Assembly: GCA_964354495.1 (NCBI GenBank)
Contig: CAYHAA010000013.1
Span: forward strand, 30,001-62,000
Length of the DNA: 32,000 bases
Direction: 5' to 3'
Source of the DNA: an uncultured archaeon
GTDB lineage: Archaea > Asgardarchaeota > Thorarchaeia > Thorarchaeales > Thorarchaeaceae
The position numbers and the translations under genes were made by a program. This document shows positions 11,031 to 30,079 of this stretch, in pieces. Position 1 is the stretch's first letter. Every line of letters begins with the position of its first letter. The notes under the pieces were generated by a model. It was given only the letters and a program-made list of their open reading frames with translations. It searched no databases and had not been told where the DNA came from.

Positions 11031-12392
11031 CTATCGGTTCAGCCTTTTTTGTGCAGCATCTGCAGATTGCACAAGAGGATCCCAAGTGTCGCACACAGCT
11101 GGTGCATAGCAATTCTCAAAATCGAAGAGCTCTCCTGCATCGATGTTCTGCTGTATGCCCAATGTCAGCACGTTCAATCTCATTGCGGCATCCTCAAGTC
11201 CCACGAGTTGACCTCCGACGAGTTTGCCGGTCTCTTTGTTGAAGAATGTCTTCAGCTTGAGGTCCAATCCTCCACTATAGTAGGGTGGTTTTGTACTCCC
11301 TTTGATCGAACCCTTTACGATAGGGATCTTGAGCCTACTGGCCATCTCCTCTGTAAGCCCAGTGCTGGCAATTTCCAGGCCGAAGAGCTTTGTTACTTTG
11401 GCTCCAACAATGCCGGGGAATCTGACATCGCCACCGGCAGCATTGATTCCTGCAACTCGTGCCTGACGAACTGCAACAGTTCCGAGACCTGCAGTCATAG
11501 GGGTGCGCGTGATGAACTCTGAGTTCTCGGCGCAATCGCCAACCGCATAGACGTCTTTGAGATTCGTCATCATTCGGTCATCCGTCTTGATGCCTCGTGA
11601 TGGACCAATCTCAACGCCAATCTTTTGAGCAAGGTCAGTCACTGGTCTGACACCAGTGGCTACAACCACAAAGTCAGCAGGAATCTCCGAGGTCTCTTCT
11701 GTCTCCCTGCTCTTCACAATCACACCGGTGGGCTTCTCCTTTCCTGTTATCTCTTGAGCCGCAGTGTTATTGAGAATCTTGAGACCATGCTCTCTGCAAT
11801 GCTCTTCGATGATTTGTGCCATATCAGGATCTACCATAGCCAAGAGAATGTGAGGCAGAAACTCAACAACTGTGACCTCAAGACCACGTTCATGAAATGC
11901 CTCAGCTGCTTCCATTCCAACAAGACCTCCCCCGATTATTACACCAGTCTTTGCGTTGTCAGCCTCCTTTGCCAGAGCCTTGGCATCATCGAGAGTCCGC
12001 AGGCCATAGACGCGTTTCTTGTCAAGACCTTTGAGAGGAGGGTCTGCGTTCCTGGCACCTGTTGCGAATATCAGAGCATCATAGTCCTGGTGCCCCTTGC
12101 CTCCTGCACCATCAAAAGCGAGCTGCCTTGAATTGTGATCGATATCAGTGACACTTGTACCCAGTCTGGCTTGTATATCAAGGCCTTCCCAATTCGCTGG
12201 CGGCATGAGTACAAGGTCATTGAAGGCCTTCACCTTGCCTGAGACAGTATAGGGCAATCCACAGCGAGAATACTGGGAATAAGGTTCAGAATTAAAGAGC
12301 GAAATTGCGACTTTCCGATTGAATTTTCGAGCCTGCATTGCAGCAGTCGCACCTGCGGCACCACACCCGATTATGGCAATATGCTCAACCAT
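11031..12392 (-). CDS. FAD-dependent NADH oxidase / CoA-disulfide reductase family protein
   Basis: FAD GxGxxG (IIGCGAAG), single redox Cys (YSRCGLPY), NAD(P)H site IIGGGLVG, YAVGDC, C-terminal YAP...WDP. ATG at 12392 preferred over the track's GTG at 12425 because a TATA-like CTAAATAT lies at about 12445-12438. Confidence 0.92.
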   Translation of the reverse strand: MVEHIAIIGCGAAGATAAMQARKFNRKVAISLFNSEPYSQYSRCGLPYTVSGKVKAFNDLVLMPPANWEGLDIQARLGTSVTDIDHNSRQLAFDGAGGKGHQDYDALIFATGARNADPPLKGLDKKRVYGLRTLDDAKALAKEADNAKTGVIIGGGLVGMEAAEAFHERGLEVTVVEFLPHILLAMVDPDMAQIIEEHCREHGLKILNNTAAQEITGKEKPTGVIVKSRETEETSEIPADFVVVATGVRPVTDLAQKIGVEIGPSRGIKTDDRMMTNLKDVYAVGDCAENSEFITRTPMTAGLGTVAVRQARVAGINAAGGDVRFPGIVGAKVTKLFGLEIASTGLTEEMASRLKIPIVKGSIKGSTKPPYYSGGLDLKLKTFFNKETGKLVGGQLVGLEDAAMRLNVLTLGIQQNIDAGELFDFENCYAPAVCDTWDPLVQSADAAQKRLNR

Positions 12393-12621
12393 GATGATGG
12401 TCTCCGAATATCTCGGCCTCTTCACCCCTGGCTCATCATATTTAGGCTATCGGTACCACTATAGAGAAGCACAGAATCGATAAAAGGAGGGTAACTGAGT
12501 ACTTCTGTGCAGTGACTTGAGAAATCACTCTTTACCCGAAAGAAGTAGGAAATTCACAAGTGTGTGGCTCAAGACCTGTGCTTGCTATATCGCCTTCAAA
12601 ATCGAGAGGAATGTGTCTGAT

Positions 12622-15600
12622 ATGAGTAGAGATTCTATGAGTAGAAGAGAAAGTAAGTTTCGACCGATGTCTATACCAATGAATGGCAATAATCTGAATA
12701 TGCTAAAGCTGTTGTCCTTGTTCTTCATTTCGTTCATGGCTGTTGCGCCAATTATTCTAAGCAATAGCCCTACAGTCTCCAATCTGGATTCAGAAGATGG
12801 TTCCGGATTCTTGCCATCTCAAGCTCTCTACCACTATACGCTGCCAGGTTCTTCAAGCATTCAGATAGCGACTGGGACGGTCCAAGGATACAATGGATTT
12901 GCGTACGTAAACGATGACGAAGATAAGCTCTTTTTTGTGGATATTCTCAATGGAGTATCACTCGACATTGCACTCCCTTCGGGGAATCAAGGCTCTGGAT
13001 CCGACATCATTGGCTATGATGTTGATAATGATGGAGATTCAGAGTTCCTAATTCGCAATTTTGTCAATTCCCAATACTATATTCTGGTGGTCGACATCGA
13101 TGACGCAATTGTATCACAGTATCCAATACCCTTCAACTACCCTGCTGCAGTCTGTTTTGGTGACTTCAACGGAGATGTCTATCCTGATACACTGATAAAG
13201 AACATCAATAATAATAACGACTTCATGACCCTTGATCTTCTCGCCAATGCCACAATAGGCTCTTTCCATGTGGATTATTGCTATGCTGGTCAGGTCGTGG
13301 GAAAGTTTGCTAGTCTCACAGAGGACTCGATTGCACTCGTTAATAGATACTCGTTTCAGCAGAGAAATCTGACTCTGGTTGCAGCAGATGGAACTCGGAT
13401 TGACTCTATCATTCTCACTCCATCCATACAAGATCTGGTGACATTCCACCACTTAGGTGGACTTGATGAAATAGCCACAATCGAATCGGATGGAGACATT
13501 GTAGTCTATTCGGGACCATCTCTAGGTGCTACATACACAAACAACGTGGATCCCCTCTCAAGTTCTTTCAGAACGATCCAGACTGGCATCTTCAATCTTG
13601 ATTCGCAAGAGGATCTAGTAGTCACTAGCCGAAATCAAGAGAAGGCCTACTTCAGAGATGGAAATGCTGGATTCCAAATAGGCGAAACTAGCGGTATTTA
13701 CACATCCAGCTTCAAGCGGCAGGATCTTGGTCTGATGGATAGCGACACGCTTGATGACCTTGCCGTGGCCACCGTAGACGGCGGTCTTGGCATTGTCCGT
13801 GGGCAAGATGGCAAGTTCGCTAACATAGAATACATGATTGATGTTCGGAGTGCATCATCGTACGAAATCGAGATGATTGATGTCAATGGAGACTCACGGG
13901 AAGATGTGATTTGCAGAGTGGCTGGTCATGTGTATCTGCTGTTGAGCGATTCAACACCCCCGAATGTCCTGCAACTGCCAATAAATCCCAGCCATCCAAC
14001 GACTCTCGATGACTATGTTACGGTCGAAGTGCAAGTCGACGAATCATCTGGAATCGAGTATGCGGATATCTTCATGAGACCTGAGGGTGCCGGATCATGG
14101 ATTCAACCGCAGGATGAGATGTATGCATCTCATCAGGAAGGAGTCTATTATGCATTCATTGCGAACTTGCAGGCTGGCATCTATGAATACTACATGGAAT
14201 TCGAGGACACATACCTCAATACGAGAAATGTAGGTAATTCTACAGGCCCTTTGAGTTTTGTGGTGGCAGGGGATTTTGTCTGGCAAGTCGATAAGAGCCA
14301 AACAGATTATGCTGCAAGCAGGGCACATCAATCGGACATTGGAAATCTCTCCGACGGGCAGAGAGTCATATACACAATTGAGAGAGAAAAAGGTGCCAGC
14401 AATCTTACGCTAACGCAGTATTCGAGCAGCGGTGCTGTTCTTGACACGGTGACCATAATAGACACAGCGGACGTCTGGGTGTGGTTCGAAATCTATACAG
14501 CCATGCTCGATGGAGACAATGTAGCAGACATCATCGTTCTTGACTACTACAACTTCAAAGGTACAGCTTTCTTTGGTTATCACGCCTATCATGGAAACAC
14601 TCTCTTATTGATTGGCGAAGGAGTATGTCCTTACCCATACAAGAGCTTCAATTATCTTGGAATCATAGATGATGATGGTGATGGAAACGAAGAGCTACTG
14701 CTCGTATCGGATACAACACCCCTATCCCTGATAAAAATGGATTCGGATACAAGCTGGTCAGAGGTCGATATTTCGGGCGTTACAGCACCTCGGGGTTATT
14801 CAGTGATTCATGACCCTAGTTCAGGTGATGGGTATATTGCAGTCCTTAGAGGAAACCTAGCAATTGATATCCACCTGGCATCGGATCTATCATTCGTTCG
14901 CTCCCTTGACATTAGTCTCAGTGCATATTCTGACCAAGTCGCTATAGGCTTGTCAAGTAGATACAATTCACTTGTCACACGAGAAGAATTCGTGGCTACT
15001 GTCAATTATTGGAATGGCACTGACCCAACGGGACGCATCTTCATTTTTGACAGCACAACGACAAATATGAACGATACACCCTACTACGCAGTGCCTCATG
15101 AGGCAATCACATACACCTTCGCATATGATACAATTGACAGCGCCACTGATGAGCTGTTCATTCTCTTGAATTCAGGAGAACTCCGCTTAGCAGAGGCTGC
15201 CACATCGTTGACGAATCTCTGGTCCACATTTGTCACTAGTGCTACACCTCTCAGCGCCACAGTCGCTGATTTTGACGGAGATGGCAGTGGTGAGTTTCTG
15301 CTTTTCACAGATCAAGACGAGCTTCTCACATCGGTTTCCTTAATCGGCGAAATTGAGTGGACAGTGAAGGTGGGCGAGGTACGCAATCCACTAGTCGTTG
15401 GCAACATAGACTTGGTGCCCGGAGTGGAGATTGCTGCCTACCCGTTTGCATCGATAAACAGCATGATTTTGGGTGCAGTTCGAAATCTCGACAGTAGTTA
15501 CCTTCTTGATGTCACTGTGGAGCATTCTTCTACGAACTTGATTCAGGGAAACAGCCTAAACGTAAACGCAACAGTGATGAATATCTATGGTGACTTCATA

Positions 15601-18276
15601 CATGATGCAACCATCTACATGGCTGCTCACTATATGACTCCCGAAGGGGCTAGCTCGAATACGTATGGATTCTATTACCTGGGAGCAGAGGGCAAGTACT
15701 CGGCATTGATGGATGTTACGTGGCCTATTGGGACTATTGACCTGACTATCGAGGTGGACAACGGTTTCTACCATGTATTTCGTGAGTTTTACACAGATGC
15801 ACTGATTGTCAGGAGTTACCTGCAGGTGGATCTGGAGGTCCCAGATATCGTACAACAAGGTGCAAACACGACAATCCGGGCGAGGGTCTTCGATAATCTT
15901 GGAGGCGCGGTAGAAGGTGCGACGGTCACCATTTCCATTGGAGGCACGGTCTATCCCACAACGGTCACTGGGCAAGTACACGTCCTGATGATCTCTGAAG
16001 TGCAACTAGAGGCAGGAATCCACATAGTTGCAGGTAGAGCCAGTCATCCTTTTGCACTGTCTGATGGAGAGAGAAGCAGAGCATTCACAGTGCAGGTACT
16101 TACAGAGAATCTGGTGATTTCGACAGACTTTCCCGCGAGCGTTCAGCAGGACAACCTAGTCGAGGCCTGGTTCAACGTCACTGACGCATATGGTCATGCC
16201 ATATCCGGAGCAGAAGTTACACTCAAGAACGGGCCGCGACTATTCGTTATGACCGAGAGCCCAACAGAACCCGGATGCTACAGGTTCATTCACAACATGA
16301 GCCTGACTCTCGGAGTACAGAGCTTCGACCTCAGAGTGGCAAAACCGAATATCATTGGACCTCCAGCGACAACTGTGAGTGTTGAGGTCTATGGCGATCT
16401 CGAACCAAGTGTATTCTATGAAACACGTGTAGAGGGCAATTCCATGTTTCAGATACATGTCTTCGTGAAGGACAAATACGGACCTGTAACTGCAGGAGCT
16501 AGTGTAGCCGTCGAGATAAATGGAACCAGATATATATCGATAGGCACAACCGACAATCCGGACTACTTCCTATTCGCTCCGGCTGATTTCCTAGTGGGCA
16601 AGAACAACTTCACAATCTATGTCAATGCAACCTACGCAACACCATGGACGGGCATCTTCACGATAAGAGCTTACGCTGATGCCTCTGCATCTTCATCGAT
16701 AGTGTCAACGCTTGGATGGACCGTCTTGCAGGGAGAAACAACTGGGCTGGAATTGACTCTGGAGGACTGGATTGGAAGGCCTGTCTCAGGCGCAAGAGTA
16801 TCATTCTATGTCAGGGCTTTTGCATACACTCTCGTTGAGGTCAGCCCCGGTCTCTATGCGGCGGATGTTTCTACTGTAGGTTGGGCACCGGGACAATACG
16901 GATACACGCTTGCAGTGAACCATGAGGATATTCAAACAGGAGAGCCGATAGAGGGCAATCTTACGGTACTTGGAAGCTTGGTACTCGATATGAAACTCAA
17001 TTCACAACAACCATCTCAGGGTGATTCTCTCGTCATTGAGATTCTCATTGCGGATCACTACGGGAATCCTGTTCCAGGACTCCAAGTGTACGTAACTGTA
17101 ATGGACATGCCGACAATCGTGGCGGAAGAGTCAGATCTGGTCGGAAGTTATATCGTTGTCATCGAGCATCTTCCTACAACAGAGGGATATGGAACAAAGA
17201 ACATCAGCATAGATGTGACGGGTCAATTCGTTCAGCCAAAAGCCATGTCAGAGACATTCTATCTATTTGTCGCCAATCCTGATATCGGCCTGAACACTGA
17301 GACTGCCATATCATTCACGGGCATCTCATTTGTAGTAAGCCTGATTGGCATGTTCTTTTACTTCAGAATGGCACCTTCGCTACGACGAACAGGAACGAGC
17401 ACGGGAGAGCTACAGAAATCCGTGAAACGCATGGATAGACTCTATCTCGCCATTGTGCTAGCGAGCGCAGCAGGCATCGTATTTTCTATGAGGCTCAGCG
17501 CGATTGGCGAGTATGGAGAAGCTCTAGTCCTTGCCGTGACGCTTCTTGGAGCCTCTGTACTCCTCTATGGTCTCTGGCTCTACAGAGATGCAGTATCAGC
17601 AGTCATGGTGAGCGGGGCTTTGAACAAGAAGCGGATGGTCGCAGGCTTATGGCATCTATTCTTTGTCCCTATTGTGATTGTGATGATTCTCAACTATGGA
17701 ACAGAGATTGATTGGTTCAAAGCATACATGATAGATCAGGCATTTAGCATAGGTAGCTTCTCCATACCTACGATCATGACGACGATATTCGTTGCATATC
17801 TATCGTCTATACTAGTTGTAGTGGTCAATCTCTACCGAGAAGTGAAAAGCGGTCTGAAGAAGCTCAGGAGAATGCAAGAGGCTGACACACCCATCGCTAT
17901 TCTCGAAGATGAAAAGGAAACAATGGTCAATAGGTTCAGTTCATCAATCAGAATCAAGTTCCTGATGTTTCTGGTGGTTGTAGGTGCTGCCGCAGTGACA
18001 ACAATGGATTTCCTGCAGAGCTATGAACTCGGAATCATTGTGCTCCTGCCTGTTGCCTTCTTGGTTGTAATACCATTCATCTCATCCAAAATAGTCCAAG
18101 CGCTGAACCGGGCCTCAAACGTCAAAATCAGGAAGACTAGCGTATCTATTGCGGGGGATTCGGTAACAGCAGTAGCTGAGAGATTGCCTAGCGATACTTC
18201 TGAAGTGGATTCAGAGTCTGTAATGGAAGAAGATCTAGCGAACAAAGAACCAGAAGATCGAAGCGATTCAGATTAG
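12622..18276 (+). CDS. Giant surface glycoprotein: signal/anchor, FG-GAP-like Ca-binding repeats, Ig-like repeats, C-terminal 7-TM region
   Basis: DxDxDG-type motifs (DVDNDGDSE, DFNGDVYPD, DVNGDSRED, DDDGDGNEE, DFDGDGSGE); six D..G..(V/I).GA.V-like repeats; seven hydrophobic segments at about 17302-18105; acidic tail. ATG at 12622 follows GAGAGG (track start 12517). Confidence 0.9.
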   Translation: MSRDSMSRRESKFRPMSIPMNGNNLNMLKLLSLFFISFMAVAPIILSNSPTVSNLDSEDGSGFLPSQALYHYTLPGSSSIQIATGTVQGYNGFAYVNDDEDKLFFVDILNGVSLDIALPSGNQGSGSDIIGYDVDNDGDSEFLIRNFVNSQYYILVVDIDDAIVSQYPIPFNYPAAVCFGDFNGDVYPDTLIKNINNNNDFMTLDLLANATIGSFHVDYCYAGQVVGKFASLTEDSIALVNRYSFQQRNLTLVAADGTRIDSIILTPSIQDLVTFHHLGGLDEIATIESDGDIVVYSGPSLGATYTNNVDPLSSSFRTIQTGIFNLDSQEDLVVTSRNQEKAYFRDGNAGFQIGETSGIYTSSFKRQDLGLMDSDTLDDLAVATVDGGLGIVRGQDGKFANIEYMIDVRSASSYEIEMIDVNGDSREDVICRVAGHVYLLLSDSTPPNVLQLPINPSHPTTLDDYVTVEVQVDESSGIEYADIFMRPEGAGSWIQPQDEMYASHQEGVYYAFIANLQAGIYEYYMEFEDTYLNTRNVGNSTGPLSFVVAGDFVWQVDKSQTDYAASRAHQSDIGNLSDGQRVIYTIEREKGASNLTLTQYSSSGAVLDTVTIIDTADVWVWFEIYTAMLDGDNVADIIVLDYYNFKGTAFFGYHAYHGNTLLLIGEGVCPYPYKSFNYLGIIDDDGDGNEELLLVSDTTPLSLIKMDSDTSWSEVDISGVTAPRGYSVIHDPSSGDGYIAVLRGNLAIDIHLASDLSFVRSLDISLSAYSDQVAIGLSSRYNSLVTREEFVATVNYWNGTDPTGRIFIFDSTTTNMNDTPYYAVPHEAITYTFAYDTIDSATDELFILLNSGELRLAEAATSLTNLWSTFVTSATPLSATVADFDGDGSGEFLLFTDQDELLTSVSLIGEIEWTVKVGEVRNPLVVGNIDLVPGVEIAAYPFASINSMILGAVRNLDSSYLLDVTVEHSSTNLIQGNSLNVNATVMNIYGDFIHDATIYMAAHYMTPEGASSNTYGFYYLGAEGKYSALMDVTWPIGTIDLTIEVDNGFYHVFREFYTDALIVRSYLQVDLEVPDIVQQGANTTIRARVFDNLGGAVEGATVTISIGGTVYPTTVTGQVHVLMISEVQLEAGIHIVAGRASHPFALSDGERSRAFTVQVLTENLVISTDFPASVQQDNLVEAWFNVTDAYGHAISGAEVTLKNGPRLFVMTESPTEPGCYRFIHNMSLTLGVQSFDLRVAKPNIIGPPATTVSVEVYGDLEPSVFYETRVEGNSMFQIHVFVKDKYGPVTAGASVAVEINGTRYISIGTTDNPDYFLFAPADFLVGKNNFTIYVNATYATPWTGIFTIRAYADASASSSIVSTLGWTVLQGETTGLELTLEDWIGRPVSGARVSFYVRAFAYTLVEVSPGLYAADVSTVGWAPGQYGYTLAVNHEDIQTGEPIEGNLTVLGSLVLDMKLNSQQPSQGDSLVIEILIADHYGNPVPGLQVYVTVMDMPTIVAEESDLVGSYIVVIEHLPTTEGYGTKNISIDVTGQFVQPKAMSETFYLFVANPDIGLNTETAISFTGISFVVSLIGMFFYFRMAPSLRRTGTSTGELQKSVKRMDRLYLAIVLASAAGIVFSMRLSAIGEYGEALVLAVTLLGASVLLYGLWLYRDAVSAVMVSGALNKKRMVAGLWHLFFVPIVIVMILNYGTEIDWFKAYMIDQAFSIGSFSIPTIMTTIFVAYLSSILVVVVNLYREVKSGLKKLRRMQEADTPIAILEDEKETMVNRFSSSIRIKFLMFLVVVGAAAVTTMDFLQSYELGIIVLLPVAFLVVIPFISSKIVQALNRASNVKIRKTSVSIAGDSVTAVAERLPSDTSEVDSESVMEEDLANKEPEDRSDSD

Positions 18277-18298: not shown

Positions 18299-18325
18299 TT
18301 GGGGCGGATGTAGTTCCCGCCCCAA
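18299..18325. terminator. GC-rich hairpin between convergent genes (likely bidirectional terminator)
   Basis: TTGGGGCGG-atgtagttc-CCGCCCCAA, perfect 9-bp stem. Confidence 0.65.
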
Positions 18326-18353: not shown

Positions 18354-19889
18354 CTACTCCTCATCAGGCGCGTCTTTTCTCGATTCATCCTGAGATCCAG
18401 ACATGGTCTGTCCTGATTGGCCGGCATCGTCCATTGGTTCTTCAGAGCCTGTGTCCTCTCCTTGTTTGACAGCAATGCCAGTTTCCTCAGCAGCTCCCGC
18501 CTCAGTCTTGGCTTCCGTCTCAGTCGGTATCCATTTTTTACCTGCATCAATATCGCCCTGGAACTTCTTGATCTGAGTCTTGCGGCTAACATATAGAGCA
18601 ACAATCACTGCAAGGGACATTGTTGCGCCTACGATTGTTATAGTAGTCTGAAACGTACTCGCACTGTCGCCAAGCAACTGCTGCCAAGTGATGACAAGGA
18701 ATGCAAGACCTGCAATATTCATGACGAAAGATCGTAGGGGTGTTCCGACCTTGACGATTTCAGTGACATTCGTATCAACCATTGCTGCAGCAATTACCCC
18801 AGCGTTGTAGTCTGTCGATTTTGTCTTCTTTGCAAGGGTACGTATATCTGAGTGATTCTTCTTGCCCATGACTTTCAGTGCGACAGGCACTTTTGATGCA
18901 AGAAGGTCTGCGTATTGAACTCGGGCATCATCACTTGTCAAATTGCACTTCTTGCACATGTCGAGTTTCTTGTTCCAGTCGCGTCTGCACTTTGGACACT
19001 TATCACCCTGCCAAGCCTCCGGCGCGGTCTCTCTCAGACGCTGTCTGATGATGTACTCGCTGACACTACTGTCCTCTCGTGGTGATTCATCGGAGCTCTT
19101 CTTCTTCCCAAACTTTGTCATTCCAGCAAGCATAGAGAAGAGGAGAGGCAGCGCGCCGATAACTGTCAAGTTAGGTAGCGACTTCAGTTCCGAAGCCTTC
19201 TTCTGAATTCCCCGAAGCTTGTACGCAGTCTTCAGACCATCAAATAGGCTCATGAATCCGTTTCCAGCACCATAGACAGCACCAACAGTTGCTACACTTG
19301 TGGATATTCCAGTTACTGAAGTGACTATATCCAGTGGTGAAGCTGGAATACTGATATAGAAGGAATGGCTCTTCAGAATATTCACTGTCGCATTGCCCTC
19401 AACAAAGTATCTGAAGTCCATTGAAGCCTCTATGATGCCCGTGACGAGTTTGAGAGGGCCATAGTTGAAAATGGAGGAGAAATCAATGAACGCATTGATA
19501 ACAGGAATCGCCATAGTATGGTCGACCCAAACCCAAGTTGAGTTCGTGACCGGCTCGATAATCGTTATTGGAAAGATTGCGATTCCCTGGTAGTAGAACA
19601 TGATGGTGCCGCTCATGTTCAAATCGTGTGCACTTGTCACATTAATCTGGAGTCTGAGCAACATCGGGGTTTCGATATTGAGCACGAGGGGAGAAGACTG
19701 GTGATAGGCATCAATGACGTTTTGTCCGTCGAACGCGGCATAGACGTAGAGTGTGTCATCATGGAGAAAGTCAGTTGGAAATACAGGAACTTGGGCGGTC
19801 GTTATGGTCAGGGTAGATCCCCCAACCAACATCACTAGAAGCAGAGTCATGAATCCAACGAAGACAATCTTTGATGGCGAGCGAGGCAT
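18354..19889 (-). CDS. Membrane protein with exported N-terminal domain, cytoplasmic Zn-ribbon and putative winged helix
   Basis: Signal-like N-terminus; sequons NVT, NMS, NST, NAT; CPKC-x11-CKKC; helix-turn-helix-like DIRTLAKKTKSTDYNAGVIAAAMVDTNV; two C-terminal TMs; acidic tail. Confidence 0.8.
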   Translation of the reverse strand: MPRSPSKIVFVGFMTLLLVMLVGGSTLTITTAQVPVFPTDFLHDDTLYVYAAFDGQNVIDAYHQSSPLVLNIETPMLLRLQINVTSAHDLNMSGTIMFYYQGIAIFPITIIEPVTNSTWVWVDHTMAIPVINAFIDFSSIFNYGPLKLVTGIIEASMDFRYFVEGNATVNILKSHSFYISIPASPLDIVTSVTGISTSVATVGAVYGAGNGFMSLFDGLKTAYKLRGIQKKASELKSLPNLTVIGALPLLFSMLAGMTKFGKKKSSDESPREDSSVSEYIIRQRLRETAPEAWQGDKCPKCRRDWNKKLDMCKKCNLTSDDARVQYADLLASKVPVALKVMGKKNHSDIRTLAKKTKSTDYNAGVIAAAMVDTNVTEIVKVGTPLRSFVMNIAGLAFLVITWQQLLGDSASTFQTTITIVGATMSLAVIVALYVSRKTQIKKFQGDIDAGKKWIPTETEAKTEAGAAEETGIAVKQGEDTGSEEPMDDAGQSGQTMSGSQDESRKDAPDEE

Positions 19890-19961
19890 TTATCGAATTC
19901 AACTCCTGAGGTAACACTGAGAGTGCTCACTGACTGTCAACGATTGAAAAGGGTTTCTGGT

Positions 19962-20375
19962 CTATCGGGGGTTAGATTGCGGTGTTGGTTCTCGAGTTCC
20001 GCGCACCATGTCTGCAACTTTCCTTGCAACAGATGCAAAGCCTTCGCTTTTCTTAAGTACACCCTTGGCACCCACCTCAGCAGCCTGTCTCATTGAATCA
20101 GTATCGAAGTATGCAGTAAGAAGGTGGATGTTGGCAATCCCCATGCTCGTCAAAGTCTTGGTGCACTCAAGACCCCCCATCTCAGGCATCTTCATATCCA
20201 TAAGAACAAAGTCCGGAGGATGACCCTCTTTGATGCAGTTCTTCGCCAATCCGATGGCTTCCTGACCATTTGATGCTGTAATGAGTTCGAAGTCGTCAAG
20301 GAACTTCTTCAGGTACGCGTTCATTACTTCATGAATCGCTGGTTCATCATCAACAATCAGGATACGGAGTGACAC
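19962..20375 (-). CDS. Stand-alone response regulator receiver (CheY-like)
   Basis: ILIVDDE, phosphoacceptor DFVLMD*MKMP, LLTAY, VLKK; GGTGA SD. Confidence 0.95.
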   Translation of the reverse strand: MSLRILIVDDEPAIHEVMNAYLKKFLDDFELITASNGQEAIGLAKNCIKEGHPPDFVLMDMKMPEMGGLECTKTLTSMGIANIHLLTAYFDTDSMRQAAEVGAKGVLKKSEGFASVARKVADMVRGTREPTPQSNPR

Positions 20376-28508: not shown

Positions 28509-30079
28509 CAAGGCATACCTCCCAGGAGCATCTGTTCAATAACTGGTTGTACTACTCCGAGAATCAGGTCAGGCCATATTCCAAGCAAGATGACAGGAAT
28601 CAGCATCAGTATTGGCGCGACCAGGTCATTCCAAGAGGCCTCAGAGACCTCCACTTGAGGGTCAGGGTCGCTGAACACAATTCTGTTCAGCATCCACAGC
28701 ATGTAGCCCACCGTGAGAAAGATACCAAAGGCAATCAGTGCCGACAGAGGGTATATCACAATAGATCCAAAGATGACCAGTGCTTCTGCGATAAAGCCGC
28801 TAAAGCCAGGCAAACCAAAAGCCGCGAGTGTGGCGATTATGAACACTCCAGAAAGGCGCGGTGCTTTTGTCATAAGTCCCTTGACATTAGGAATTTCCCT
28901 TGTCCCTGCACTGTATTTGAGCTGACCAGAAACAATGAACATCACGGAAATTATCGTCCCGTGAGAGAACATCATGAATATTGAACCCTGAACGGCCAAG
29001 TTTGCTGCAGCCTGAATTGCAGGATCTGCGGAGTTGTAACCAGCGGCATATGCAGCTACACCAAGCAAGACCCAAGCCATATGATTGATCGAGGTGTACG
29101 CGACTAGGCTCTTCATGTCAGTCTGAGCCAGTGCAGTGAAAGCAGCATAGATGCACGTAAAAACAGCGGCAACTGCAAAAGGAATGGCTAATCGTGCCAT
29201 AGCCTCAGGTACCATCCACAAACCAAGACGGATGAATGCATACCCTCCCATCTTCAGCAGGATTCCAGCAAGAATGACAGATCCAGGTGTCGGAGCCTTC
29301 ACATGTGCCCATGGAAGCCAGTTGTGAAGCGGAAAGACGGGCAATTTCACGCCTGCACCCACAAAGAGTGCAAGGGCAAATCCAATTTGAATGGTTGGAT
29401 CAAGTCCAATGTTGCGTAGCGCGACCATATCGAAGGTAGGCACATGATTAACTGTGAAGCTGGAGGACATGAAGTAGAGATAGAAAAATCCCACCAACAT
29501 CACAGCAGAGCCGAGGTGGGTGTAGATGAAGAACTTGATTGAGGCATGTCTGCTGCCTTCCTCACCCCACTTACCAATGATGAAGAACATGGGCACTAGA
29601 ACAAGCTCCCAGAATATGAAGAATCCAATCAAATCGAATGAAACAAAGACTCCCAGCAGCCCTGTCTGCAGCAGAAGAAACAGAGCATAGTACACATTTG
29701 CTGAATTCTTGATGTGATTCGACCCGATGGCCGCAATCCATACTACGAGGGTGGAGAGCAGGACCAAGACCATCGAGATACCATCGACACCAAGGATGAT
29801 CTCAAAGACTGGAGAATCTGTGGTTGTACCTAGTCGAGCTAAGATATAGCTCCAGGTGTGACTCAGACCGCCTGGAGCTGGACCTACTGATGGAGTGCCC
29901 AGCATCAGGAGTACGGAAAGACCCAGCTCTAGAGTTGTGATGGCCAGCGTGATGGCTCGCGCTCCCTTGTTTCCGAGGAGATACGCTAGGAATGCGCCAC
30001 CTAGAGGCATCACAAGCATTAGAACAAGGATGTTCAATGGAAGACCGTTGATTAGACCCGTGGCAAAGTCCAGCTGCAT
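28508..30079 (-). CDS. nuoM: NADH:quinone oxidoreductase-like subunit M
   Basis: FFIFWELVLVPMFFII, KLPVFPLHNWLPWAHVKAPTPGSVILAGILLKMGGY, KSLVAYTSINHM. Confidence 0.93.
   Translation of the reverse strand: MQLDFATGLINGLPLNILVLMLVMPLGGAFLAYLLGNKGARAITLAITTLELGLSVLLMLGTPSVGPAPGGLSHTWSYILARLGTTTDSPVFEIILGVDGISMVLVLLSTLVVWIAAIGSNHIKNSANVYYALFLLLQTGLLGVFVSFDLIGFFIFWELVLVPMFFIIGKWGEEGSRHASIKFFIYTHLGSAVMLVGFFYLYFMSSSFTVNHVPTFDMVALRNIGLDPTIQIGFALALFVGAGVKLPVFPLHNWLPWAHVKAPTPGSVILAGILLKMGGYAFIRLGLWMVPEAMARLAIPFAVAAVFTCIYAAFTALAQTDMKSLVAYTSINHMAWVLLGVAAYAAGYNSADPAIQAAANLAVQGSIFMMFSHGTIISVMFIVSGQLKYSAGTREIPNVKGLMTKAPRLSGVFIIATLAAFGLPGFSGFIAEALVIFGSIVIYPLSALIAFGIFLTVGYMLWMLNRIVFSDPDPQVEVSEASWNDLVAPILMLIPVILLGIWPDLILGVVQPVIEQMLLGGMP

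Follow-up and report, generated by a model that had tools for sequence, protein, structure and literature searches.

A giant predicted surface protein of an uncultured Thorarchaeia archaeon, built on a conserved six-helix membrane core

We analysed a 32,000-nucleotide stretch of DNA (hereafter 'the window'; positions 30,001 to 62,000 of the forward strand of contig CAYHAA010000013.1, assembly GCA_964354495.1) from an uncultured archaeon of the Thorarchaeaceae, a family of Asgard archaea, and in it one gene (12622-18276, +) that encodes a giant protein, P0002. An earlier note on this DNA had described the product as an integrin-like head on a seven-helix anchor with the layout of an adhesion G protein-coupled receptor (GPCR), and had proposed an archaeal adhesion receptor that may signal. 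Our analysis supports the picture of an archaeal surface protein whose large, adhesion-type ectodomain stands on seven helices in an N-out/C-in orientation. Six of the seven helices form a core that recurs across Asgard genomes, is more conserved than the ectodomains it carries and has no convincing match to a known fold. We think it probable, with some reserve, that P0002 is a surface adhesion or recognition protein in which a variable head is borne on an immunoglobulin (Ig)-like stalk, and in which the novel, autonomous six-helix core is the functional base on which a partner, within or beneath the membrane, is docked or organised.

Results

Seven C-terminal helices in an N-out/C-in orientation

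A Kyte-Doolittle profile of P0002 gives seven C-terminal hydrophobic helices (residues ~1563-81, 1607-25, 1633-55, 1672-92, 1715-37, 1777-95 and 1803-22). The same seven, the number counted in the earlier note, are reproduced by an AlphaFold2 (AF2) model of residues 1550-1845 built on a 91-sequence alignment (predicted local distance difference test score, pLDDT, 88; predicted template-modelling score, pTM, 0.81). The local pLDDT is 75-83 in the first transmembrane helix (TM1) as against 93-98 in TM2-TM7. Hydrophobicity and the AF2 model delimit TM1 (residues 1563-1581; 17308-17364, +), a linker helix between the stalk and the conserved six-helix core TM2-TM7 (residues ~1600-1830; 17419-18111, +), the limits of which come from the alignment of relatives and the model. 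The protein closes with an acidic cytoplasmic tail (residues 1831-1884; 18112-18273, +), which is poorly conserved as judged by sequence comparison.

Loops 1, 3 and 5 and the tail together hold 23 Lys and Arg residues, as compared to one in the outer loops, and the bias is the same in all 91 aligned relatives. The N-out/C-in orientation, previously proposed from the positive-inside rule, is thus borne out, and the longest cytoplasmic loop does lie between TM5 and TM6. The C-terminus of the family can be placed inside the cell also because double zinc ribbons directly follow TM7 in distant relatives. In the AF2 model the TM helices are 34-37 residues long and should therefore extend into the cytoplasm.

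Conserved motifs mark the cytoplasmic boundaries of the helices (LYxxWxYRD after TM3, NLYRE after TM5 and SSIRIK before TM6). The extracellular TM4-TM5 loop (residues 1693-1716) is conserved as well, and is modelled with a short helix and a beta-hairpin; the conserved outer-loop positions are G1693, I1696, W1698, F1699, Y1702, G1711 and P1716. Elsewhere in the core, H1678 (TM4), S1729, Y1738 and the IRxK motif with F1783 and L1784 (before or in TM6) are conserved, and P1810 in TM7 is invariant. P0002 carries the complete core signature: a W-F..Y extracellular loop, [I/L]R.K..FL before TM6 and an invariant Pro in the last helix.

The core is a self-standing Asgard membrane module

A whole-library phmmer search with the membrane module (residues 1530-1884) returned a family of 126 representative clusters (50% identity); 44 of these scored below 1e-30, and the lowest E-values reached 1e-133. 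The module is nearly always C-terminal, in host proteins of 1400-3000 amino acids (aa). A word-indexed search returned 95 clusters at 90% identity, some full-length and some partial, nearly all of them from metagenome-assembled genomes (MAGs) of Thorarchaeota. Those with names are without exception hypothetical proteins of Thor-, Loki-, Odin-, Sif- or Promethearchaeota MAGs; a divergent subgroup bearing zinc ribbons maps to Hermodarchaeota and Promethearchaeota MAGs. The survey of Asgard genomes that the earlier note had called for, run here as a profile search, found the module in 92 of 400 genomes, including 56 of the 85 of the window's own family and scattered members of other families. On these sequence searches, the module is an Asgard-restricted and previously unnamed family. 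Thor genomes frequently have two paralogues, of ~1850 and ~2500 aa, and the window's own genome carries one copy. A weak second profile match in that genome (G000:C5:169617-169919, in L002; E 1e-4, profile positions 12-113) has a 224-aa open frame.

The distant module matches align from about TM2 onward, and carry BNR_2 ectodomains and C-terminal double zinc ribbons. At least one member, P0181 (L048:3292-4335, +; 347 aa), comprises a cytoplasmic N-terminus, six helices and a double zinc ribbon only; its gene lies well inside its 6.2-kb contig, on which no giant ectodomain gene is called. Because the distant and stand-alone members lack TM1, we take TM1 to be a stalk linker and TM2-TM7 to be an autonomous core. 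The six-helix core is self-standing, with both of its ends in the cytoplasm.

Neither Pfam nor NCBIfam has a match in the last 355 residues of P0002, and Pfam searches of the 91 relatives yielded scattered noise only (DUF2178 in six members, HlyIII in two, and others). When the modelled membrane module was compared to known and predicted structures, the best Foldseek match in the PDB had an E-value of 0.24 and the best in the ESM Atlas a TM-score of 0.39, and a feature search gave no usable match. Two matches only were found among the AFDB clusters (E 2e-9), both of them family members and one annotated as a DZANK-type zinc-ribbon protein. The top rows of a VIA fold search were designed helical bundles, with GPCR rows at a root-mean-square deviation (rmsd) of ~16 Å. 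As far as the predicted structure can be compared, the core has no convincing known fold match in the PDB, AFDB or ESM Atlas. The structure prediction and Foldseek search proposed in the earlier note have thus given a confident model with no known fold match; seven helices were counted and the search turned up neither a transporter nor an anchor fold, the two points on which that note had staked its reading.

A core that exists as a stand-alone gene and has a few conserved polar residues in or near the membrane (H1678 and S1729, with the invariant P1810) might be a transporter, channel or membrane enzyme, for which the ectodomain would capture a substrate such as a polymer or metal. We consider this very improbable: the searches gave no fold match for such a protein (Foldseek E > 0.2 in the PDB, the ESM Atlas TM-score of 0.39, designed bundles in the top VIA rows), H1678 is replaced in the zinc-ribbon subgroup, and the core has no conserved charged intramembrane network. 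A rhomboid-like reading of S1729 and H1678 as catalytic Ser and His was rejected on the same replacement of the His and the same lack of a fold match.

Two predicted propellers on a stalk of six Ig-like domains

Pfam detects FG-GAP_3 in three stretches of P0002 (2.2e-14, 54 bits against a cut-off of 26.9), and DxDxDG-type calcium-loop-like motifs are found at residues 133, 181, 420, 683 and 883 (nt 13018-15268). An AF2 model of the head (residues 55-975, 53-sequence alignment, pLDDT 89.6) is all-beta. It comprises a first FG-GAP-type propeller with DxDxDG-like loops (residues ~69-451; 12826-13974, +), a beta-sandwich (residues ~452-543; 13975-14250, +; strands at model residues 411-483) and a second FG-GAP-type propeller (residues ~544-953; 14251-15480, +), with ~33 strands per propeller. 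This propeller-sandwich-propeller order agrees with both of the FG-GAP-like clusters, split by a beta-sandwich, that had been read from the sequence before.

In an exhaustive structural search of PDB representatives, both propellers were nearest to eight-bladed structures (Rsa4, Sqt1, BamB, YxaL, Cdc4/Fbw7, Bap1 and the designed Ika8), and integrin alpha-V ranked 48th with a model-based rmsd of 8.9 Å. Bap1, a biofilm adhesin of V. cholerae, is among the structural neighbours of the head, as are predicted FG-GAP/VCBS repeat proteins; a phmmer search of the ectodomain against PDB sequences gave no match. Each propeller is predicted to have eight blades, not seven, and since the propellers are closest to eight-bladed structures, the head appears to be of the prokaryotic FG-GAP/VCBS kind. 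Judging by the model, it resembles integrins in the type of repeat and the order of domains, and not in blade number or copy number. From the loop motifs, we infer that the propellers bind calcium.

The stalk (residues 959-1548; 15496-17265, +), defined by Pfam and repeat alignment, consists of six ~97-aa Big_1/invasin-like Ig repeats. Pfam matches Big_1 at 1.8e-9 (38 bits, where the cut-off is 34.9), and the six Ig motifs, at residues 987, 1091, 1188, 1284, 1382 and 1478, recur with a ~97-aa period, the period in the repeat alignment being 96-104 aa. All six Ig-like repeats of the earlier note were found where it had quoted them. The 16 N-x-S/T sequons of P0002 all (16/16) lie in the ectodomain, before TM1.

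Two head types alternate on a near-constant base

Every full-length homologue is most conserved in its membrane module. Between P0002 and P0005, the heads are 28-32% identical, the stalks 65% and the TM modules 79%. In sliding windows identity rises stepwise, from 20-40% in the head through 45-65% in Ig1-4 and 80-85% in Ig5-6 to 90-100% in the membrane module. There are two types of head: type A includes P0002, P0004, P0006, P0013, P0014, P0025, P0027, P0040 and others, and type B includes P0005, P0015, P0018, P0023, P0028, P0048 and others. Head identity is ~30% between A and B and 45-80% within a type. Across the two types the best-kept part of the head is the inter-propeller sandwich (39-46%, as compared to 28-32% for the propellers). 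The membrane modules group by lineage and not by head type, as seen in the pairs P0025 (A) and P0023 (B), P0027 (A) and P0028 (B), and P0014 (A) and P0018 (B), which are 93%, 92% and 86% identical, respectively.

Within the genus of the window's own genome (g1), the locus beside the homologue of P0221, the product of the neighbouring gene described below, carries type A in G338, G344, G348, G000 (the window's own genome) and others. In G339 and G364, at least, it carries type B; G342 and G350, also of g1, have B-like heads (50% identity) on short contigs. There is apparently one ~1850-aa copy per g1 genome, and the gene for the type-B protein P0048 shares synteny with type-A genes. As judged by gene order, at least some A and B heads are at the same locus. 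We detected no recent recombination between A and B in g1, the representative genomes being ~70% nucleotide-identical across the whole locus end, and at this level of identity between species representatives the head dimorphism is old rather than a recent swap. A variable head on a constrained base is the pattern that would be expected of a recognition molecule under diversifying or balancing selection.

The same comparison bears on the possibility that P0002 is a structural envelope protein, that is, a giant glycoprotein that builds a non-crystalline or S-layer-like coat with the core as its foundation or oligomerisation platform. A giant ectodomain with 16 sequons would suit such a coat, as would a gene that is widely conserved in the family at one or two copies per genome, and archaeal surface-layer proteins with Big_1/Ig stalks and with propellers are known. 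However, two head types of ~30% identity at one locus would be unusual for a self-assembling lattice protein, and many of the family's genomes yielded no match to the module even though they are fairly complete, such as G349 (99% complete) and G313 (98% complete). We regard a structural role of this kind as distinctly unlikely.

Conserved neighbours and the case for signalling

Convergent with the P0002 gene lies that of P0221 (18354-19889, −; 511 aa), which was characterised by its domain features and its conservation across genomes. P0221 has a cleavable signal peptide, a ~200-aa ectodomain, a TM helix, a cytoplasmic CxxC-x11-CxxC zinc ribbon, a TM hairpin and an acidic tail, and across its family the half comprising the TM helix, zinc ribbon and TM hairpin is far more conserved than the variable ectodomain. 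Directly upstream of it on the same strand is a stand-alone response-regulator receiver gene (19962-20375, −; Pfam Response_reg 7e-19), and the two probably form a two-gene operon (18354-20375, −). The P0221 family is present in 83 of the 85 own-family genomes, is almost absent elsewhere in the phylum, and adjoins the giant gene in several genera. Second P0221-like copies occur in most own-family genomes; the window's own genome holds two distant paralogues (G000:C38:7124-8260 and G000:C41:3888-5021; ~24% identity, ~420-430 aa).

The order NUDIX, Macro, a ~160-aa gene, oxidoreductase (−), giant gene (+), P0221-type gene (−) and response regulator (−) is kept in Thor-type genomes down to 50% module identity, and a rearranged form of the block stands beside a 2964-aa variant. 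While the adjacency of the P0221 gene is suggestive of a functional link, it may be inherited gene order, since the whole ~10-kb block is syntenic.

These neighbours matter most for a further alternative, in which P0002 is a transmembrane signalling receptor without GPCR homology: a ligand or mechanical load on the head would alter the core, which would act on a partner, namely P0221 together with the response regulator or, elsewhere, a fused zinc ribbon. Several observations would fit. The core and the cytoplasmic boundary motifs are the most conserved parts of the protein; the modelled TM helices, at 34-37 residues, would reach well past the bilayer on the cytoplasmic side; the P0221 and response-regulator pair is a conserved neighbour in several genera, and the ~2500-aa paralogue lies near two-component genes; and in Hermod/Prometheo-type members the core has zinc ribbons fused to it. 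On the other hand, Pfam recognises no output domain in P0002, where a divergent acidic tail is all that follows the core, and the neighbouring operon is convergent and so not co-transcribed with the giant gene, in a block that is syntenic throughout.

Nor do the known receptor families lend support to signalling. No 7tm family was matched by the TM region (Pfam, E <= 10) or by the 91 relatives (E <= 0.1), and the 7TM and DISMED models of the 7TMR-DISM receptors have no Pfam match in P0002 or the 91 relatives. GAIN/GPS has no Pfam match in any of the 91 relatives, nor at E <= 1 in P0002, in which the juxtamembrane segment comes straight after the sixth Ig repeat, and the GPCR rows of the fold search lie at ~16 Å. 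Archaea are also not known to have heterotrimeric G proteins. On balance, a signalling receptor seems to us unlikely.

The surroundings of related genes provided further observations. Next to the ~2500-aa paralogue is a convergent gene for a 297-aa VWA protein with a DxTGS MIDAS-like motif (L045:13595-14488, −; L018:17593-18486, −), and in two related genomes a response-regulator/PAS/histidine-kinase cluster lies near this paralogue. We considered the VWA protein as an analogue of integrin beta, the obligate partner of integrin alpha with an extracellular VWA-like domain, and rejected it: it has no signal peptide or TM helix, and is hence cytoplasmic. There is no VWA gene in the P0002 locus, to which this search was confined, no genome-wide search having been made. 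On the contig of P0199, a zinc-ribbon-type member, the giant gene is followed convergently by genes for a Peptidase_C13 (legumain-like)/Big_7 protein and an Arf-like small GTPase; an Arf-like GTPase gene also lies ~5 kb downstream in L016. P0002 itself bears no longin tail, and its gene is not adjoined by a GTPase operon.

The gene, its start and the N-terminus

The P0002 gene (12622-18276, +; 1884 aa, the coordinates including the stop codon) was identified as an open reading frame with homologues, and the frame and the motifs quoted previously are all present at the positions given for them. The longest open frame is 12517-18276. The ATG at 12622 is supported as the start by the N-termini of homologues, which match to ~1 residue, and a CTATAT element lies ~30 nt 5' of it. 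The divergent gene on the other side encodes a pyridine-nucleotide disulphide oxidoreductase (11031-12425, −). A perfect GC-rich hairpin (18299-18325; 9-bp arms TTGGGGCGG and CCGCCCCAA, 9-nt loop), read from the sequence, lies midway between the stop codons of the convergent P0002 and P0221 genes, and is possibly a bidirectional terminator.

P0002 begins with a basic, presumably cytoplasmic segment (residues 1-27; 12622-12702, +) with the motif SKFRP (nt 12652-12666), which has counterparts in homologues. A hydrophobic segment follows (residues 28-46; 12703-12759, +; Kyte-Doolittle mean 2.29), either the h-region of a signal peptide or an uncleaved signal anchor. The motif, S-x-[F/Y]-R-P in general form, sits in the long basic n-region, 12-15 residues ahead of the first hydrophobic helix. 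It is common to the ~1850-aa and ~2500-aa Thor-type paralogues and is also present in the alignment consensus. In contrast to the P0221 family, there is no obvious AxA-type cleavage site after residues 28-46, and the segment of P0002 may stay in place as an anchor instead of being cleaved off as a signal. From the conserved motif, the N-terminus would seem to be kept as a cytoplasmic element or to serve as a dedicated signal for targeting, and not to be an ordinary signal peptide. Of the signal-like N-terminus noted earlier, the hydrophobic segment therefore stands, while an ordinary cleaved signal is in doubt given the long basic n-region and the conserved motif.

Discussion

In the reading that we favour, P0002 is a surface adhesion or recognition protein organised around its membrane core. 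The two calcium-loop FG-GAP propellers, with the sandwich between them, would form a distal binding head, and the six Big_1-type Ig domains would act as a stalk that keeps this head off the membrane. TM1 would lead into the TM2-TM7 core, the helices of which are predicted to form a basic, conserved bundle that reaches into the cytoplasm, with the acidic tail after it. The head would be the variable, ligand-facing part, with two apparently ancient head types alternating on near-identical membrane-proximal parts. The core would do more than anchor the protein passively. As its functional base, it would probably dock or organise a partner within the membrane or in the cytoplasm, and in this way couple binding at the head to the cell. 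We infer both the adhesion or recognition function and the docking or coupling role of the core.

Several considerations weigh against this reading. The adhesion role is assigned by domain analogy, and FG-GAP/VCBS propellers and Big_1 domains are found also in enzymes and in S-layer-like proteins. The activity of the core cannot be read from its sequence, because few intramembrane polar residues are conserved. Blade count and helix packing are read off AF2 models, not solved structures. Finally, the module went undetected in about one third of own-family genomes; many of these are incomplete MAGs with fragmented giant genes.

A more specific version would make P0002 an Asgard receptor for cell-cell or partner recognition, in which the two old, alternative head types, kept at one locus across species, set specificity (for example for syntrophic partners, kin or viruses) and the six-helix core, as a membrane fold not seen before, relays binding to cytoplasmic partners. 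In Thorarchaeota these partners would be the zinc-ribbon neighbour and the response regulator, and in Hermod/Prometheo-type members the fused double zinc ribbon. We consider this recognition receptor, taken together with its proposed partners, to be unlikely.

No known prokaryotes are more closely related to eukaryotes than the Asgard archaea, and how these archaea make contact with partners and surfaces lies at the heart of models of eukaryogenesis, yet hardly any of their surface proteins have been annotated. Against this background, the family of P0002 defines a widespread membrane module, apparently restricted to Asgard archaea and without a detectable fold relative, that carries varied giant ectodomains and is more conserved than its cargo. 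Our literature search found no paper that joins Asgard archaea or Thorarchaeota with FG-GAP proteins or that describes the module. Integrin repeat-containing proteins are listed, in a passing mention, among Asgard eukaryotic signature proteins, and an unrelated integrin-beta4-like family adjoins FtsZ/tubulin genes (PMC9258230); the preprint of the survey cited there says nothing on the integrin repeat-containing proteins.

Among known systems, proteins with Big_1 (invasin/intimin-type) repeats resemble P0002 in its Big_1 match and tandem ~95-aa repeats, but they and bacterial FG-GAP/VCBS propeller adhesins such as Bap1 are secreted or anchored in the outer membrane or by a single TM helix, and none has this conserved polytopic base. 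The 7TMR-DISM receptors are prokaryotic proteins that likewise have an extracellular domain followed by a 7-TM region; they end in a kinase, GGDEF or similar domain, whereas P0002 ends in an acidic tail and its relatives in a double zinc ribbon. As for integrin alpha, the shared features are an FG-GAP propeller with DxDxDG calcium loops, then a beta-sandwich, Ig-like legs and the membrane. However, integrin alpha has one seven-bladed propeller, as compared to two in P0002 that AF2 predicts to be eight-bladed, and it has a single-pass TM helix and a short GFFKR tail, as compared to seven helices and no GFFKR. The integrin-like head of the earlier note thus holds for repeat type and domain order and fails for blade number and propeller count. 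With adhesion GPCRs (class B2), P0002 shares a very large adhesion-type ectodomain N-terminal to seven N-out/C-in helices. It differs in having no GAIN/GPS or Pfam 7tm match and in the 1+6 build of its helices, the core of which also occurs alone. Here it is the gross layout that survives, and not GAIN/GPS or membership of the 7tm families, for which neither Pfam nor the fold comparison speaks. Homology of P0002 to integrins or GPCRs is not supported, and our finding corrects an over-reading of its layout: the likeness to both is one of repeat type, domain order and gross topology.

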